Below, in pieces: positions 2,150 to 8,021 of a DNA stretch of 8,021 nt. Source of the stretch: a virus (taxonomy: Duplodnaviria > Heunggongvirae > Uroviricota > Caudoviricetes). The notes beneath the pieces were generated by a model. The model ran no database searches. It saw only the letters and a list, made by a program, of their open reading frames with translations, and was not told where the DNA came from. The stretch's first letter is position 1. Every line of letters starts with the position of its first letter. The position numbers were made by a program, and so were the translations under genes. Location of the stretch: the IMG/VR virus record IMGVR_UViG_2778261358_000014. One strand, 5' to 3'.

Positions 2150-2174
2150 GAAAAAAAGCCGGATTGCTCCGGCT
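2150..2174 (-). terminator. Rho-independent terminator ending the replication operon
   Basis: Hairpin AGCCGGA-ttgc-TCCGGCT (2157-2174) followed on the minus strand by a T7 run (plus-strand A-run 2151-2157), 19 nt after the stop of ORF 2193..2438. Confidence 0.6.
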
Positions 2175-2192: not shown

Positions 2193-2438
2193 TTATTCTC
2201 CAGCGCTTTTAACGTTGATGGTTGTTACCTGTTCCGCTTCGGCAATCTCCCGTTCTGTCAGCGTGGCAAAGTTTGCCGCCGCTGTGGTCATGAATGCGCT
2301 TATCAGTTCGGGATGCTCCTTCGCGTATCCTTCCCCCGCGTGGCGGTCTATCGTTCTGATTGCCACCTTTAAGGAAAGCTCTGTCATGTCTAACGCTTTA
2401 TATTTTGGCGCTGTCTTATCTCTGGTTTTTCTGTTCAT
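2193..2438 (-). CDS. Hypothetical protein (81 aa) downstream of the origin
   Basis: ORF from the track with ATG at 2438 and protein-like composition, followed by an intrinsic terminator. The antisense ORFs here are low-complexity. Confidence 0.5.
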   Translation of the reverse strand: MNRKTRDKTAPKYKALDMTELSLKVAIRTIDRHAGEGYAKEHPELISAFMTTAAANFATLTEREIAEAEQVTTINVKSAGE

Positions 2439-2641
2439 TCCCCACTACTCCCCACTTTTGCTCCCCACTTTTTGAAATTACCCACCGTCTCCCCACCTCT
2501 TTTTTTTGTGATTCTAACGTTATGTTTTTCAATATGTTTTTTACTCCCCACTTTTTTGGGTATATACAGGTGGGAAAGTGGGTAATTATGTTTCAATTTT
2601 GTTAAATTCCCCACTCCCCCCACTTTTACTCCCCACTTTTT
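2439..2641. repeat. Iteron array, putative island replication origin
   Basis: At least eight direct copies of (CT)CCCCAC(T)4-8 (at 2440, 2450, 2463, 2491, 2546, 2609, 2616, 2631) plus an inverted copy GGTGGGAAAGTGGG (2569-2582), flanking an AT-rich core (about 2500-2545). It starts directly at the stop codon of the Rep helicase gene. Confidence 0.6.
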
Positions 2642-4040
2642 ACAGCGGGCGCACGTCATCACCGTCAATAACGATTACGCCATCATTTTCCAGCTTGTAC
2701 AGCCAGCGCCGGAAGTGCTTCATCTCATACCCCAGCTTTTTCATATCGTCGCGGAGAAGGGCGATAGTGCACGCCTCCCCGTGTGCTGTTCGTGTTCTGA
2801 TGCACTGCCATAGCGCGGCGTGATTCTCCGTCTTGTTCCCTGCCTCCTCGATGCGCTCCAGTTCAACGGGAGGGCGCGGCTTATCCACCACCACCAGCGA
2901 CGTGATTAACTCCCCGTCAGCGTCGGTAAAAAGCTCCACCACGCGTAAGTCATATGCTGCTTCTTTGAGTTCCTCCGCGTCCTTCATTTTGGTACATGAG
3001 ATAACCAGCGCTTCGCTGCCTGCGTCCTCCCTGCGTATCCGGTATTCGGCGTCCAGTGATGCACGAAATGCACTGGAACCACGCGCCCCCTTTGTTTCAT
3101 CCTTGCCGGAATGGTGAACCACCAGCACCGTTGCCCCTGTGCGCCGTTTCAGTTCGTCACACCCACGGATAAACGCCCCCATATCACGGGAATCATTTTC
3201 ATCATTGCCGCCAAAGCAGCGCGCCAGCGTATCCAGAATAATCATTCGAACCGGTTTACCCGTTTCCCGTTCCACCTGACGGGCAGCGATAACCATTTCC
3301 TCAACATCAAGCGGGGCAGCCGGAAAGATGGGACGGTTTACCAGATACAGATTTTTCACCTGCTCACCGTGCACAACCTCCCAGGCTTTTACACGACGCG
3401 GAACGCCGATACCGCCTTCACCAACCACATAGAGAACAGCGCCATGCGCCACCCTGCGGCCTCCCCACTGGCGGCCCGTGGAAACGTGACACGCCCACGA
3501 ACCCGCAAGGAACGATTTATATGAACCGCTCGCCCCGTATATGCTGCACAGCGATACCGCCGGAATAATCCCCTTAACCACGTAATCAAGTTGTGTGTCG
3601 TATCCGGCAGATCCCACGCTCATTGGTAGCGTGGTTTTTCGCTGGTGGTGTTTTTCTTCCCCTGGCTTTTTCCCCCGCTCCCGTTCCAGATATTCGCGCC
3701 AGTTCTCCCGCTTCTGGCTGTGCATCCCTTCGGGGTAATAATTCGCATCAGTTACACCCGCCGCCGCCAGCTTGTGCGCAATGGCATTAATATTTGATGG
3801 CCTGATGTGGCCTGCCTTGTACAGCCGGACACAATAGCGCCCCTCGTCGATGATTCTCAGGTCTGCCAGTTCATCCAGTTGATCATCAGCCAGCACAACG
3901 GGAGGCACATTATCGCCAGCCAGTCGCCCGTCCTGTTCCTGCCACTGTTTCGCATGTGCCCAGGCATCACTACCCGCAAAAATAATGACTTCGGTCATCT
4001 TGTCGTAAGGCTGTTTTTTTAAGTTCGGTGCGCTTTTCAT
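2640..4040 (-). CDS. RepA-like replicative helicase (RecA-fold / AAA_25-type ATPase) with a C-terminal putative origin-binding domain, 466 aa
   Basis: Walker A GASGSYKS (residues 169-176, nt 3513-3536), Walker B VRMIILD (about residue 270) and the VLVVHHSGKD motif typical of RepA/DnaB-like helicases. The start ATG overlaps the stop of the upstream ORF (ATGA). The gene is immediately followed by iterons. Confidence 0.85.
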   Translation of the reverse strand: MKSAPNLKKQPYDKMTEVIIFAGSDAWAHAKQWQEQDGRLAGDNVPPVVLADDQLDELADLRIIDEGRYCVRLYKAGHIRPSNINAIAHKLAAAGVTDANYYPEGMHSQKRENWREYLERERGKKPGEEKHHQRKTTLPMSVGSAGYDTQLDYVVKGIIPAVSLCSIYGASGSYKSFLAGSWACHVSTGRQWGGRRVAHGAVLYVVGEGGIGVPRRVKAWEVVHGEQVKNLYLVNRPIFPAAPLDVEEMVIAARQVERETGKPVRMIILDTLARCFGGNDENDSRDMGAFIRGCDELKRRTGATVLVVHHSGKDETKGARGSSAFRASLDAEYRIRREDAGSEALVISCTKMKDAEELKEAAYDLRVVELFTDADGELITSLVVVDKPRPPVELERIEEAGNKTENHAALWQCIRTRTAHGEACTIALLRDDMKKLGYEMKHFRRWLYKLENDGVIVIDGDDVRPL

Positions 4041-4336
4041 TTCTTGCCCCTGAATCCGTTAATCATGTTTTTCATCTTCTGAATATTGGTGCGTGCTTTC
4101 TCCCTGCTGGTGGGCTTGCTTCGTTGCGCTGCCTGCACCAGCGTAAAATCACGTTCGAACTGATAAACAGGCATCACGCAATCATATTCGTAGCCTTCAC
4201 GGCGGTAAGTTACGCGCCGTTCCTCCACGCCCTTAATCATTACCGTGCCGCCGTACTTATCGCGGTAAATATCCCCGCGCATGAATTTAGTGCGAGTTTT
4301 GCCACTGGCAGTTAAGCCAGGATATTTAAGTTTCAT
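4037..4336 (-). CDS. Hypothetical basic protein (99 aa), translationally coupled to the helicase
   Basis: ORF from the track with ATG at 4336 and GGAG upstream. Its stop overlaps the helicase start. K/R/Y-rich, possibly nucleic-acid binding. Not recognised. Confidence 0.5.
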   Translation of the reverse strand: MKLKYPGLTASGKTRTKFMRGDIYRDKYGGTVMIKGVEERRVTYRREGYEYDCVMPVYQFERDFTLVQAAQRSKPTSREKARTNIQKMKNMINGFRGKK

Positions 4337-4341
4337 TATTT

Positions 4342-4572
4342 TTATTCTCCGGTGTGCTGTTCTTTATATCTGTCGTGCAATAGATCTATTTCTTGCAGTT
4401 CCATTATTACAGGCTCAAGAATCGTTATTAATGCCGTGGCAATTCTTGATTTTTGTTTGTCGCGTTCATTGTCGCCAAGTGTTTCAAGCCATATGCGAAA
4501 TATTTCCAACATATTTTCACTGTGAGAAAGTGCAAGAAATGCGCGGTCTATTGTTTCAAAGATAAATATCAC
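4342..4572 (-). CDS. Hypothetical small protein (76 aa; GTG start, or 56 aa from an internal ATG)
   Basis: ORF from the track, tightly packed between neighbours with 5-nt gaps. The region is visibly AT-richer than the flanking helicase gene. Confidence 0.4.
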   Translation of the reverse strand: MIFIFETIDRAFLALSHSENMLEIFRIWLETLGDNERDKQKSRIATALITILEPVIMELQEIDLLHDRYKEQHTGE

Positions 4573-4799: not shown

Positions 4800-5017
4800 A
4801 ACCCCCCCTCCCCATTTTCACAATCAGCAACAAGAATATTTTTAGCGTCATTCAGCGACCGCGTGGCGGTGTATCGGATACATTCCAGGGCGAACAATGT
4901 GTATTCTTCCCGTTCTTCCTTTTGTGCAAGCCCTGCTGTGCATTCAATATCAATAAGCGCATGCATCAGCGTAGTGAGCGCGGCGGCTGCTGCGTCCGGT
5001 GTGGTTTTATTGCACAT
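4772..5017 (-). CDS. Hypothetical small protein (81 aa)
   Basis: Internal ATG at 5017 preceded by AGGAGG (6-nt spacer). It overlaps the stop of the upstream repeat-containing ORF, suggesting coupling. The ORF track's upstream extension to 5059 lacks an RBS. Confidence 0.5.
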   Translation of the reverse strand: MCNKTTPDAAAAALTTLMHALIDIECTAGLAQKEEREEYTLFALECIRYTATRSLNDAKNILVADCENGEGGLCVMIVLIP

Positions 5018-5567
5018 GGCACACCTCCTGACGAATACGGGCGGCGAATACAGCAACACAACCGGACGGGCAACGGCTACGTGCTTCGCGTTCCGTCCAG
5101 GCGGTTACGTGGATGATTTGATGTTCTGACGCGCCAAAGATGATAAAGCGCCAGAGAAAGGCGGTTTGAGAATGTACAAGGGTAGGGATAGTAGCCATGT
5201 TGGCAGCCTCCTCAGTGTGGTTAAGATAACCGCCACCGGAAACGCCAATTTCGCTGGTGGCGGACTGTACAGGGTTGGCGTAACCGGACACTGAAGAAAC
5301 CGGCGCGGATTGCTCCGCCCCCGTACAGCCCACCATTGATAAGGTGTGACTATGCGGCACAAAAAAACACGCGGGGCGCGTGTTATGCGCTTCAGTTTTG
5401 CCCAGGACGCCAATCCCGGCACCCGTTTTATGAGGTGCGCGGGAATCATAGCTATTTTCGACACTGGCGATCAACTGGTTTTTTTCTCCGATATTCAGGG
5501 CCAGAAAACGCCACACAAAGGCCGTTTGTGTGTGTACAAGGTGTGGTATATGATTTACGGCAACCAT
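5007..5567 (-). CDS. Repeat-containing open frame (186 codons) with two RBS-preceded in-frame starts (5567 and 5198); may be one protein, two paralogous small proteins, or a partly noncoding leader
   Basis: AGGAG + ATG at 5567 and AGGAGG + ATG at 5198. The paralogous N-terminal segments (M..IPxLVH[ST]QTAF[LV]WRF) differ mostly at third codon positions. An intrinsic terminator sits inside the frame at 5357-5384. The ORF track's 409-aa extension beyond 5567 is rejected. Confidence 0.3.
   Translation of the reverse strand: MVAVNHIPHLVHTQTAFVWRFLALNIGEKNQLIASVENSYDSRAPHKTGAGIGVLGKTEAHNTRPACFFVPHSHTLSMVGCTGAEQSAPVSSVSGYANPVQSATSEIGVSGGGYLNHTEEAANMATIPTLVHSQTAFLWRFIIFGASEHQIIHVTAWTEREARSRCPSGCVAVFAARIRQEVCHVQ
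5357..5384 (-). terminator. Strong intrinsic terminator on the minus strand, about 210 nt downstream of the leftward promoter
   Basis: Stem AACACGCG / CGCGTGTT (8 bp, GC-rich, 3-nt loop, plus-strand 5366-5384) followed on the minus strand by a run of seven U (plus-strand A-run 5361-5367). Confidence 0.55.
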
Positions 5568-5596
5568 AACGGCTCCTAGTTTACGTTGTTGGTTAG

Positions 5597-5638
5597 ACGC
5601 CCCGTATGTGTTCCCAGCACTGCGGGGCGTTGATTTTT
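5597..5638 (+). terminator. Hairpin plus T-run on the plus strand (terminator-like); its complement also forms a 5' leader hairpin of the leftward transcript
   Basis: Stem ACGCCCCG / CGGGGCGT (5597-5604 / 5623-5630) with an inner 5-bp helix, followed by TGATTTTTGTG. It sits 18 nt after the stop of a plus-strand ORF (5352..5579) that is antisense to the leader ORF. Confidence 0.4.
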
Positions 5639-5655
5639 GTGTAATGGCAAGTACA

Positions 5656-5704
5656 ATGGTAATTACCATGTAGGTATAGTAATGAAGGGTAATTACCATG
5701 TCAA
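5656..5704. promoter_or_regulatory. Switch region: leftward sigma70-like promoter (-35 TTGACA, 17-bp spacer, -10 TACTAT) overlapped by two palindromic operators (ATGGTAATTACCAT and GGTAATTACC)
   Basis: Minus-strand TTGACA corresponds to plus 5699-5704 and TACTAT to plus 5676-5681, with an exact 17-bp spacer. The perfect 14-bp palindrome is at 5656-5669 and a 10-bp palindrome at 5688-5697, centres 30 bp apart. A plus-strand TATAGT (5675-5680) shares the -10 region. Confidence 0.5.
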
Positions 5705-5871
5705 CACCATTAGAAAAACGTTCGCCTCCATACCAAATGCGATTACCGGAAGACTTCAGAGCGCAGCTAGAAGAAGCAGCTAAGGCCGATGGCGACACAT
5801 CTTTAGCCACTTGGATTAAACGCGTTCTCCGCAAAGAATTACAGCAACGCGGCATAGAACCCAAAGGATAA
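5698..5871 (+). CDS. Ribbon-helix-helix (Arc/MetJ/CopG-type) DNA-binding protein, 57 aa; candidate island repressor. Not in the ORF track
   Basis: Translation MSTPLEKRSPPYQMRLPEDFRAQLEEAAKADGDTSLATWIKRVLRKELQQRGIEPKG has the Arc-type pattern (beta-strand MRLPEDF, then two helices). AAGGG RBS upstream. Palindromic operators lie immediately upstream. Divergent from the replication operon. Confidence 0.65.
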   Translation: MSTPLEKRSPPYQMRLPEDFRAQLEEAAKADGDTSLATWIKRVLRKELQQRGIEPKG

Positions 5872-5928
5872 AAACTATCAGCGCCGTGGTGTGAGGTATT
5901 ACGGCGCATTGCTATGCAGGACAACACA

Positions 5929-6102
5929 ATGACCGATAAAGAATTGACCAAAACATTATCACCGGCACGGAAAAGACGGCGCAGAAAGATAGAGCATGAA
6001 TCAGAAAGATTCGCGCCATGTGCTTTTGCCCTTGAGCAATTCCTTAAAGAGTACAGGGAAAAGCGCTCATTGCAGGTATGGCAACGAACTGAACCAGACT
6101 GA
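5929..6102 (+). CDS. Hypothetical small basic protein (57 aa) downstream of the RHH gene
   Basis: ATG at 5929 preceded by AGGAC (7-nt spacer). R/K-rich stretch (SPARKRRRRK). Same transcription unit as the RHH gene, ending at the terminator at 6198. Coding status uncertain. Confidence 0.3.
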   Translation: MTDKELTKTLSPARKRRRRKIEHESERFAPCAFALEQFLKEYREKRSLQVWQRTEPD

Positions 6103-6197
6103 TTGCATTGCCCACCAGCCTGATAGCGGCTATCATCCCCGTGCTTATGTTTGGGATCACATACACATAAGGCGCAGCGGGTTAATTGTTCAGAAAG

Positions 6198-6224
6198 GCG
6201 GCTCCATATCGGGGCCGCTTTTTT
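6198..6224 (+). terminator. Rho-independent terminator between the convergent RHH unit and alpA, possibly bidirectional
   Basis: Stem GCGGCTCC / GGGGCCGC (8 bp including one G-U pair, 5-nt loop) followed by TTTTTT (6219-6224). The alpA stop is at 6251 on the opposite strand. Confidence 0.65.
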
Positions 6225-6250
6225 CGTGTTTGTCATATCTGTGATACCCG

Positions 6251-6457
6251 TTAAGCAGCCGTTCCGCGTGCTTCCTCTTCGCGTTCTTTCTGCCAGGACA
6301 ACACATCATCCTCATACCATCCGCGACGGCGTAAACCAACGCGAAAACCCTGCGGAAATTCTCCGGCGTTGATCATGCTTTGCAGCGTGCTGTCTGCCTT
6401 GATGTGGATAATTTTTTTTACTTCCTGGCGAAAGATAATTTTTCTGATTGCTTCCAT
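6251..6457 (-). CDS. alpA: AlpA/Vis-family transcriptional regulator (excisionase-like MerR-type HTH), 68 aa
   Basis: Motif ...LQSMINAGEFPQGFRVGLRRRGWYEDDVLSWQ matches the AlpA signature (FP...G.R..GW.E.DV..W). RBS AAGGT upstream of ATG 6457. Located next to a P4-type integrase, as in P4 (Vis) and CP4-57 (AlpA). Confidence 0.8.
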   Translation of the reverse strand: MEAIRKIIFRQEVKKIIHIKADSTLQSMINAGEFPQGFRVGLRRRGWYEDDVLSWQKEREEEARGTAA

Positions 6458-6624: not shown

Positions 6625-6807
6625 TTACCGCCATTTTTTGGGCCTGCCTCCGATCTTCATAGATGCCGGACGTACGACCTTATCAATACTTACCGCCAGA
6701 TTTCTGGAAGCGCCACGGGATACCAGAAAATCTACTACCTGTTTTTTTGATGGGGCCGTCGTTCTGTCCTCCGGATCGTAGGTTGACCAAAATTCATGCT
6801 GAACCAT
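6625..6807 (-). CDS. Hypothetical small basic protein (60 aa) translationally coupled to the 3' end of the integrase
   Basis: Its ATG (6807..6805) overlaps the integrase stop TGA (6809..6807) as ATGA. The frame ends 12 nt before the terminator. The ORF track's longer version (from 6855) overlaps the integrase coding sequence. Confidence 0.3.
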   Translation of the reverse strand: MVQHEFWSTYDPEDRTTAPSKKQVVDFLVSRGASRNLAVSIDKVVRPASMKIGGRPKKWR

Positions 6808-8021
6808 CAGGGCCAGTTGCAGCCCGTCGCCGCAGCCTCGACAAATTCGCCCCACCAGCGCATCAGCACGATGCGTTTTTCTATGTAGTTGCTCCGGTTG
6901 TATGCCCGTCTAACTTCGTTGGTGTCGACGTGGGCAAGTGCCGCCTCTATTACGTCCGGCTCGAATCCTTCCTCGTTCGCTGCTGTGCTGAATATGGCGC
7001 GTAATCCATGAGACACCAGCACGCCAGCGAATCCCATACGCCGCAATGCTGCGTTAGCTGTCTGGCTGTTCATCGGCTGCTGTGGGTCTTTCAGACTTGG
7101 GAAAACGTAATTGCGGTGGTGGCTGATTGGTTTCATGGCCTCCAGCACCGCCATAGCCTGACCGGAAAGCGGGATAACGTGATCCCTGCGCATCTTCATG
7201 CGTCCGGCAGGTATCGTCCATTGCTTCGCGTCCAGGTTGATTTCATCCCACCGCGTTGATGACGCTTCGGCGGGACGGGTTACGGTCAGTAACTGCCATT
7301 CAATCAGTAATCTGGTCTGCCGTTCTGTTGCCGATACTGATAAAGCCTGCATAAGCTCGGGCAGCTGTTCGGGGCGGATTGTTGGCATATGTTTTTTTAC
7401 AGGTGAGGGAAACGCCTTACGCACATTCATAGCCGGATTGGCATCAATCAGCCCACTGTTGGCGGCGTAATCCATTACCTCATTAACGCGCTGTAAAACC
7501 CGCTTGAGTGTTTCCAGGTTGCCGCGCTCCTTGATGGGGGTAAGCACTTCAACGAACCTTCGGGCGGTGAGGGTATCTATTGGCGTGTTGCCGATGAACG
7601 GGAATACATATTTATCCAGCGAACGCCAGATGTCTTTAATCGTGTTGGGGGCCAGATTCTGGCTGATTTTCACCTGGTACCATGCCGCCGCCACATTTTC
7701 GAACGTGTTCCCTTGTCTTCGGGCCTCTGTCTCTCTTTTTTGCCTCTCGTGGTCCTGCGGGTCAGTTCCGGCACTGATTAACGTCCTGTACTCGCTACGG
7801 CGTTTTCTGGCATCAGCCAGGGAAACATCTTCAAGCGATCCAAAACTCAGCAATATTCTTTTTTTGTCCGATGGTCGGTAGTAGGAAAATCTCCAGAGTT
7901 TTGATCCAGACGGTTTGACCAGGAGAAAAAGCCCTCCGCCGTCCTGCAGGGTGTACTCCTTTTGCGCTGGTCTGGCTGCTTTGATCTGCACTGTGGTTAA
8001 TGGGTGTGTTTTTCTCGCCAT
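6807..8021 (-). CDS. int: Tyrosine site-specific integrase, P4-type, 404 aa (complete; ATG is the last three bases of the window)
   Basis: N-terminus MARKTHPLTTVQIKAARPAQKEYTLQDGGGLFLLVKPSGSKLWRFSYY is the characteristic P4-integrase N-terminal (arm-binding) motif. The C-terminus carries HGLRAIF (HxxR) and the VRRAYNRSNYIEKR region with the catalytic Tyr. Confidence 0.9.
   Translation of the reverse strand: MARKTHPLTTVQIKAARPAQKEYTLQDGGGLFLLVKPSGSKLWRFSYYRPSDKKRILLSFGSLEDVSLADARKRRSEYRTLISAGTDPQDHERQKRETEARRQGNTFENVAAAWYQVKISQNLAPNTIKDIWRSLDKYVFPFIGNTPIDTLTARRFVEVLTPIKERGNLETLKRVLQRVNEVMDYAANSGLIDANPAMNVRKAFPSPVKKHMPTIRPEQLPELMQALSVSATERQTRLLIEWQLLTVTRPAEASSTRWDEINLDAKQWTIPAGRMKMRRDHVIPLSGQAMAVLEAMKPISHHRNYVFPSLKDPQQPMNSQTANAALRRMGFAGVLVSHGLRAIFSTAANEEGFEPDVIEAALAHVDTNEVRRAYNRSNYIEKRIVLMRWWGEFVEAAATGCNWP

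Follow-up and report, generated by a model that had tools for sequence, protein, structure and literature searches.

The region 2439-2642 is very probably (we put it at about 85%) the Rep-dependent vegetative replication origin of a Gram-negative PICI of the EcCI11128 type, with the adjoining helicase as the putative initiator. It lies in a window of 8,021 nt, by which we mean the whole stretch of DNA that was analysed (IMG/VR record IMGVR_UViG_2778261358_000014), and the assignment is drawn from comparison with related sequences. An earlier note had read the region as an iteron-type origin. This reading gained support: the fourth iteron base covaries with residue 442 of Rep, the C-terminal domain of Rep is predicted to be a winged helix and the edges of the exchanged cassette coincide with the edges of the modules. 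Across the compared loci all iteron copies change in concert with one Rep residue, and the helicase core, the winged helix and the repeats are inherited together as one cassette. As an origin the region is ordinary: it belongs to one more catalogued island that obeys the published PICI rule, according to which the origin sits just 3' of rep. Since the rule is published and the island is catalogued, this kind of origin was already known and finding it is not in itself novel. The one-residue, one-base specificity correspondence is new as far as our literature search showed.

The island and the repeats downstream of rep

Nucleotide identity shows the window to be a phage satellite (PICI) of E. 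coli that is already catalogued, as EcCI11128/EcCI11368.1. A 501-nt query (window 2300-2800) matched many E. coli chromosomes at 100% identity, and for O111:H- 11128 the 100% match falls inside the published EcCI11128 interval (NC_013364 is the RefSeq copy of AP010960). Fillol-Salom et al. 2018 (PMC6092414) place this interval at AP010960 2855234-2864550, at the yejM site. In strain E2865 the island is located between tRNA-Pro/yejM and yejO, and 1051 of the 5426 complete E. coli genomes contain a relative. Every gene of the window is carried on the minus strand. The island shows the PICI order int - alpA - rep in one direction together with a PICI attachment site. The integrase gene (int, 6807-8021) is followed by an AlpA-like regulator (6251-6457), a DUF4222 gene (4037-4336, Pfam DUF4222) upstream of rep, rep itself, an 81-aa ORF (2193-2438, phrog_1231) downstream of rep, a small terminase gene (TerS, 1087-1713) and a 308-aa capsid homologue (1-927). 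Both the DUF4222 gene and the 81-aa ORF are kept beside every rep type. The end of the island (~8.4-9.3 kb in total) beside yejO thus carries its own small terminase and a short HK97-type capsid homologue, in place of which sister islands have SSB, PerC and a full-size capsid gene. We also detected a C4 antisense RNA (5253-5340, minus strand, 77.6 bits) and an isrK Hfq-binding RNA (5362-5438, minus strand, 66 bits), both at the Rfam gathering level. The pair, an RNA immunity module of the P4/P1 type, is located within a 409-aa ORF (5007-6236) that is probably spurious and where RefSeq has Icd-like and ash-family pseudogenes.

The repeats occupy the 201-nt gap between the helicase stop codon and the start (2438) of the 81-aa ORF. 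We counted eight exact copies of CCCCAC on the plus strand, at positions 2440, 2450, 2463, 2491, 2546, 2609, 2618 and 2631, and only two in the other ~7.8 kb of the window. The ninth direct copy deviates from this motif (ACCCAC, core 2481-2485). In the sense of the genes the repeat unit reads as an A-run followed by GTGGGG, with a spacing of 9-13 nt. The earlier note had counted at least eight direct copies and one inverted copy. Its eight direct copies were reproduced when exact copies were counted, but we found two inverted copies, each of them degenerate (plus-strand GTGGG at 2570-2574 and 2578-2582). The repeats do start at the helicase stop codon, as had been stated: the A-run of the first iteron overlaps the TAA at 2640-2642 and shares its two As (sense strand TAAAAAGTGGGG). 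At the other end the final iteron stops one base short of the ATG at 2438. The AT-rich core claimed between the repeats was also recovered, with a GC content of 0.29 across 2500-2599 and iteron sets on both sides. The rep-proximal and rep-distal iteron triples are 78% alike over a 45-nt repeat (D1).

The clustering of the repeats is far beyond chance. In 1000 dinucleotide-preserving shuffles of the window, which served as the null model, the maximum cluster of any single 6-mer per 200 nt was 5 (11 of the 1000 shuffles), compared to the observed 8. A search of the window for further repeat clusters returned none outside the gap. The motif had also been described as unusually G/C-homopolymeric. 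This is no essential feature, because sister alleles break the G-run with GTGAGG or GTGCGGC at the same positions, and we rejected a G-quadruplex or homopolymer role of the G-runs on the same ground.

Read from the rep stop codon, the region is organised as follows. The rep-proximal array (2609-2642, minus strand) consists of three direct units of an A-run plus GTGGGG (CCCCAC on the plus strand at 2631, 2618 and 2609). Then come the two inverted degenerate iterons (2570-2582, plus strand), which become CTCAC in GTGAG-type origins, and a conserved TGTATATA element (2561-2568, minus strand), which separates the inverted from the direct iterons and is the proposed site of first melting and of helicase entry. 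The central direct iteron (2546-2557, minus strand; AAAAAAGTGGGG on the sense strand) is followed by the AT-rich core (2497-2545), the candidate DNA unwinding region. The rep-distal iterons (2440-2496, minus strand) comprise GGTGGGG at 2491-2496, the degenerate GGTGGGT at 2481-2485 and a triple at 2463, 2450 and 2440.

We observed the same order from E. coli to Xenorhabdus and Morganella: 2-3 direct iterons after the stop codon, a spacer of 25-30 nt, 1-2 inverted iterons, a TGTATATA-like element, a direct iteron, an AT-rich stretch of 40-50 nt and further direct iterons that reach the next gene. Of 131 unique origins, 115 had the palindromic core (inverted iteron - nnTATAYR - direct iteron), whatever the iteron type, and about 16 of these related origins lacked it in clear form; its median distance from the rep stop in this set was 74 nt. 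Overall the architecture is kept across at least 14 genera. The arrangement by which PICI origins are recognised, iteron sets around an AT-rich region directly 3' of rep, was found in 2439-2642. Two loci showed additional units. Locus L009 has a 686-nt gap (1432-2117) with a second, tandem origin-like unit that contains its own inverted iteron - TATATA - direct iteron core, and the Xenorhabdus locus L012 has an additional GTGGGG/ATGGGG triple after its GTGAGG origin.

Other signals were scarce. We found no sigma-70-like promoter or terminator on either strand of the gap and rejected both as explanations of the region. Near the origin, the gene strand has a terminator-like hairpin only after the 81-aa ORF (2157-2174, minus strand), and transcription from rep probably continues through the origin into this ORF. 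No DnaA box with up to one mismatch was detected in 2439-2641. The motif TTACCCACT (2578-2586) was considered as a DnaA box and rejected accordingly; as it becomes TTACTCACT in GTGAG-type origins, it is an inverted iteron. When the region was folded as single-stranded DNA the signal was weak (z = -2.3), with iterons paired to inverted iterons. Single-strand hairpins add nothing to the picture and were rejected.

Rep and the fourth base of the iterons

The gene rep (2640-4040, minus strand) encodes a 466-aa RepA-family helicase (AAA_25, RecA-fold), the proposed initiator-helicase. Residues 147-315 matched Pfam AAA_25 with E=2.6e-43 and 148 bits (cutoff 27), which places Rep in this family, and there were weak RadA/RecA-type profile matches besides. 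The protein is named 'helicase RepA family protein' in RefSeq (WP_000833625.1) and also belongs to phrog_2850. The only PDB sequence match of full-length Rep was a weak one (E=0.013) to RSF1010 RepA (1g8y), covering the ATPase region (residues 148-320). Pfam and NCBIfam profiles gave no match to the C-terminal domain. As both the profile and the PDB sequence searches missed this domain, we assigned it from a structure model. The full-length AF2 model had a mean pLDDT of 64 and was poor outside the N- and C-terminal domains. Residues 400-466 were confident (pLDDT 82-93) and contained helices at 405-419, 426-435 and 443-452 and a beta-hairpin at 456-465. A separate model of the C-terminal 81 residues (pLDDT 80) agreed with the full-length one. 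All of the top Foldseek matches in the PDB were DNA-binding domains of the winged-helix type, among them those of DtxR/IdeR (DNA complexes included), PcaR and Fur and the C-terminal winged helix of MCM. The scores (E about 0.02, probability about 1, TM 0.55-0.66) were modest, as is to be expected of a domain of 65 residues.

The C-terminal domain of Rep (residues ~400-466; 2643-2843, minus strand) is thus confidently predicted to be a winged helix, in keeping with the DNA-binding role that the earlier note had given it. The predicted recognition helix is the third one (residues 443-452; 2685-2714, minus strand) and residue 442 is its N-cap in the model. The codon of His442 (2715-2717, minus strand; GTG on the plus strand, CAC in sense) would encode the reader of iteron base 4. 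We infer that the winged helix recognises the iterons from the covariation between residue and base described below.

We collected 160 further RepA-type loci from species-representative genomes and IMG/VR, which gave 133 unique rep-ori pairs. For each locus we took the Rep C-terminus and 260 nt past the stop codon, and scored the residue directly before the conserved F-x-R-W (H442 in the window). Base 4 of the iteron (GTG-N-G) tracked residue 442 across the 133 unique pairs, without a single exception in the majority base. We detected the following combinations: His occurred with G in E. coli, Kluyvera, Kosakonia, Pantoea and Trabulsiella. Lys also occurred with G (GTGGGGGA), in Pectobacterium, Serratia, Morganella and Erwinia. 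Asn was found with A (GTGAGG) in other E. coli alleles, all Xenorhabdus and one Rosenbergiella, and Ser with C (GTGCGGC) in Kosakonia, Leclercia, Phytobacter, Enterobacter, Kluyvera and another Rosenbergiella. The inverted iteron copies switched their base along with the direct ones.

The codon of residue 442 is only ~75 nt away from the repeats, so part of this association is linkage. As a control we calculated, over an alignment of 58 unique E. coli-type origins (31 with His, 27 with Asn), the mutual information of each column with the H/N class. Only base 4 of the first two iterons and of the one scored inverted iteron reached a value of 1.0. For base 4 of the central iteron we obtained 0.89, and the central and distal iterons together ranged from 0.75 to 0.89. 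The best spacer column reached 0.73 and most spacer columns were below 0.3. Because no column outside base 4 of the iterons reached 1.0, the signal goes beyond what linkage alone would give. The H/N pairs occurred on four different Rep C-terminal backgrounds, and between L004 (GTGGG) and L009 (GTGAG) residue 442 was the sole difference in the last 66 Rep residues. Where recombination is frequent, the independent switches of residue 442 admit no rigorous count. Asn with adenine and His or Lys with guanine are established amino-acid/base recognition preferences, which makes these pairings plausible, and residue 442 may well contact iteron base 4.

We lean, if only slightly, towards the following interpretation: the N-cap residue of the Rep recognition helix (His or Lys, Asn, Ser) sets base 4 (G, A, C) of every iteron and forms a one-residue, one-base switch of replicon specificity, reused in Enterobacterales satellites on several protein backgrounds, within a self-loading RecA-fold (SF4-type) initiator-helicase. 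Our literature search returned no characterised example of a one-residue switch in an initiator-helicase of this kind. H442 and one iteron base are thus a candidate specificity switch, which bears on how satellite replicons stay orthogonal, and if true the residue-442 code could help to design compatible PICI-based delivery vectors.

Mixed origins also occur. In three natural hybrids from IMG/VR (L133, L139 and L140) an Asn-type Rep is accompanied by GTGAG iterons in the proximal array and the core, but the rep-distal half also contains two or three iterons of the GTGGG type. Recombination thus seems to have broken within the origin, and distal iterons that do not match their Rep seem to be tolerated, so that a match of every copy is not required. 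Three contigs of IMG/VR genome 2585427729 (L100, L102 and L104) agreed in their Asn-type Rep C-terminus and in their top iteron 6-mers, so islands that reside in one genome can have the same replicon specificity.

The comparison of whole loci revealed the extent of the cassette. Between the conserved DUF4222 gene and the 81-aa ORF we found three unrelated replication genes, each with its own repeats in the same place: the RepA helicase with GTGGGG/GTGAGG, a primase family with CTGTCTACC and DUF927 with TAACCCGCA. By sequence, three rep types with three unrelated iterons point to iterons that are specific to the cognate initiator, as in PICI origins. In blastn comparisons with primase- and DUF927-type islands the homology covered 2204-2430/2445, ended at the iterons and restarted near 3675 (about Rep residue 122). 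The unit that is exchanged therefore runs from the helicase core through the winged helix to the repeats. The 81-aa ORF marks the distal edge of the cassette and is ~90% identical at the DNA level beside CTGTCTACC and TAACCCGCA origins. On the other side, the DUF4222 protein of the window (WP_000770163.1) recurs as an identical protein next to GTGGGG, GTGGGC and CTGTCTACC origins. The segment ~3675-4464 (Rep residues 1-~120 and DUF4222) showed 71-83% DNA identity to L003 (EcCICFT073), L010 and L011, where it matched the beginning of primase-type and DUF927-type replication genes, and Rep residues 3-122 also matched phrog_864 'DNA primase'. The replication proteins therefore have the N-terminal module in common, while the motor, the DNA-binding domain and the origin vary.

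Alternative readings and a possible mechanism

We considered several other explanations for the repeats. They could be regulatory operators bound by Rep, acting in autoregulation, in handcuffing copy control or in read-through control, with initiation taking place elsewhere. The covariation demonstrates recognition and not initiation, rep and the 81-aa ORF point the same way and no terminator separates them, and the iterons of plasmids serve as both origin and regulatory sites. However, an AT-rich core and a conserved TATATA flanked by opposed iterons are features of an origin, the window has no second repeat cluster and no promoter-like site is present on which an operator could act. The homologous position is moreover the tested origin in EcCICFT073 (PMC6092414). 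We consider the operator explanation improbable. The same loci speak to a binder other than Rep, for which the 81-aa protein, DUF4222 and factors of the host or the helper phage were considered. No function is known for the small proteins on either side, which leaves room for such a role, but the identical DUF4222 protein adjoins three unrelated iteron types, the 81-aa ORF hardly changes between CTGTCTACC and TAACCCGCA origins and a host factor cannot account for allele-specific iterons within one species. We rejected DUF4222 and the 81-aa ORF as specificity factors, given that both recur beside unrelated iterons, and a binder other than Rep is very improbable altogether.

A pac site read by the small terminase of the island would explain the repeats in yet another way. 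The island does encode TerS (1087-1713), and pac sites can contain repeats. Against this, loci L004-L008 have the same repeat architecture with no annotated TerS in the fetched stretch, and the repeats follow the rep allele and not the late genes. As there is also no lambda/phi80-type cosN in the window, a cos or pac site was rejected, and the chance of a pac site is extremely slim. Non-functional low-complexity sequence or a chance cluster has nothing in its favour apart from the shortness of the motif, and we give it practically no weight: it is already refuted by the shuffles (8 observed, maximum 5), by the concerted change of all copies and by a core and architecture conserved in at least 14 genera.

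For the preferred reading, a Rep-dependent origin, we propose the following course of events. After induction Rep would be made and its C-terminal winged helix would bind the 5-9 nt iterons (A-run plus GTGGGG), with His442 at the start of the recognition helix reading base 4. Three groups of iterons would be occupied: the rep-proximal triple, the palindromic core (inverted iterons - TGTATATA - direct iteron) and the rep-distal group, which lies beyond the AT-rich stretch of ~45 nt. Opposed Rep molecules may then flank and open the TATATA/AT-rich DNA, with melting presumably starting at TATATA. RecA-fold (SF4-like) helicase rings would self-load at the opened DNA without a separate loader, probably in opposite orientations. 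Host or helper functions, as the presumed source of the primer, would then prime and elongate. The RepA/AAA_25 class is a candidate type of self-loading initiator-helicase, and it is present in about a fifth of complete E. coli genomes (1051/5426).

Comparison with known replication systems

The closest system with experimental data is EcCICFT073. According to PMC6092414, all Gram-negative PICIs identified there carry, directly 3' of the replication gene, an AT-rich region with an iteron set on each side, and the rep-ori segment of EcCICFT073 maintains a temperature-sensitive plasmid, with no colonies for delta-rep and significantly fewer after deletion of ori. The pri-rep-ori of EcCICFT073 and the window belong to the same island family, have the same layout (int, alpA, DUF4222, rep, ori, small ORF, late genes) with the origin 3' of rep, and are homologous at the DNA level in the first ~120 Rep residues and the flanking genes. 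The initiator of EcCICFT073 is a 584-aa 'DNA primase family protein' with CTGTCTACC/GGTAGA iterons, whereas the window has an AAA_25 RecA-fold helicase with GTGGGG iterons. EcCICFT073 was the only experimentally tested Gram-negative PICI origin that we found, and it thus uses another initiator family than the RepA type. Our literature search returned no study of a RepA-type PICI replicon, origin or iteron code.

Classical iteron plasmids have iterons of 17-22 bp and DnaA boxes, rely on DnaA/DnaC to load DnaB and use an initiator that lacks a helicase domain. Their initiators are of the Rep_3 type (WH1-WH2), whereas the Rep of the window had no Rep_3 match, and we found neither such long iterons nor DnaA boxes at its origin. 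The likeness lies in the layout: in pPS10, RK2, F and R6K initiator-specific direct repeats are located beside an AT-rich unwinding element (PMC4980987).

P4 and RSF1010 each resemble the window in part. The alpha protein of P4, a satellite of enterobacterial phages, combines a helicase and a C-terminal origin-binding domain for short repeated motifs in one polypeptide. In contrast to the window, P4 alpha is a primase with an SF3 helicase, the origin of P4 has two parts (ori + crr) and its genes differ in order and content (PMC6092414). The RepA of RSF1010 (IncQ) belongs to the same Pfam ATPase family (AAA_25) as the Rep of the window, and oriV of RSF1010 likewise has iterons and an AT-rich region. 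RSF1010 divides the two tasks between separate proteins, with RepC binding the iterons and RepA acting as the helicase, and its iterons are ~20 bp long. In the window the iterons are short, and binder and helicase appear to be fused.

The SaPIs offer the nearest likeness in how the origin would work. SaPI Reps are AAA+ 3'-5' helicases of the pre-sensor II insert clade and act as self-loading initiator-helicases, and their C-terminal winged helix reads iterons of 5-6 nt directly downstream of rep around an AT-rich centre; the SaPI ori has 6-12 iterons, some in opposite orientation (PMC9371898). The window has the same short iterons directly downstream of rep, the AT-rich centre, the opposed iterons and a C-terminal winged helix, the last as a predicted fold whose recognition of the iterons is suggested by covariation. 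The opening and loading that we propose are those of the model for SaPI Reps (PMC9371898), but with a RecA-fold motor: the Rep of the window matched only AAA_25/RecA-RadA-type models and not an AAA+ ATPase with a pre-sensor II insert. The earlier note had assigned the region to a joint SaPI/PICI rule. The position of the origin immediately 3' of rep agrees with that rule as published for Gram-negative PICIs (PMC6092414), where this island is catalogued, whereas the kinship with SaPIs fell away with the non-homologous motor. The Rep of the window is not a homologue of the SaPI Reps, and the likeness between the two is therefore one of mechanism, an analogy, and not one of family or motor.
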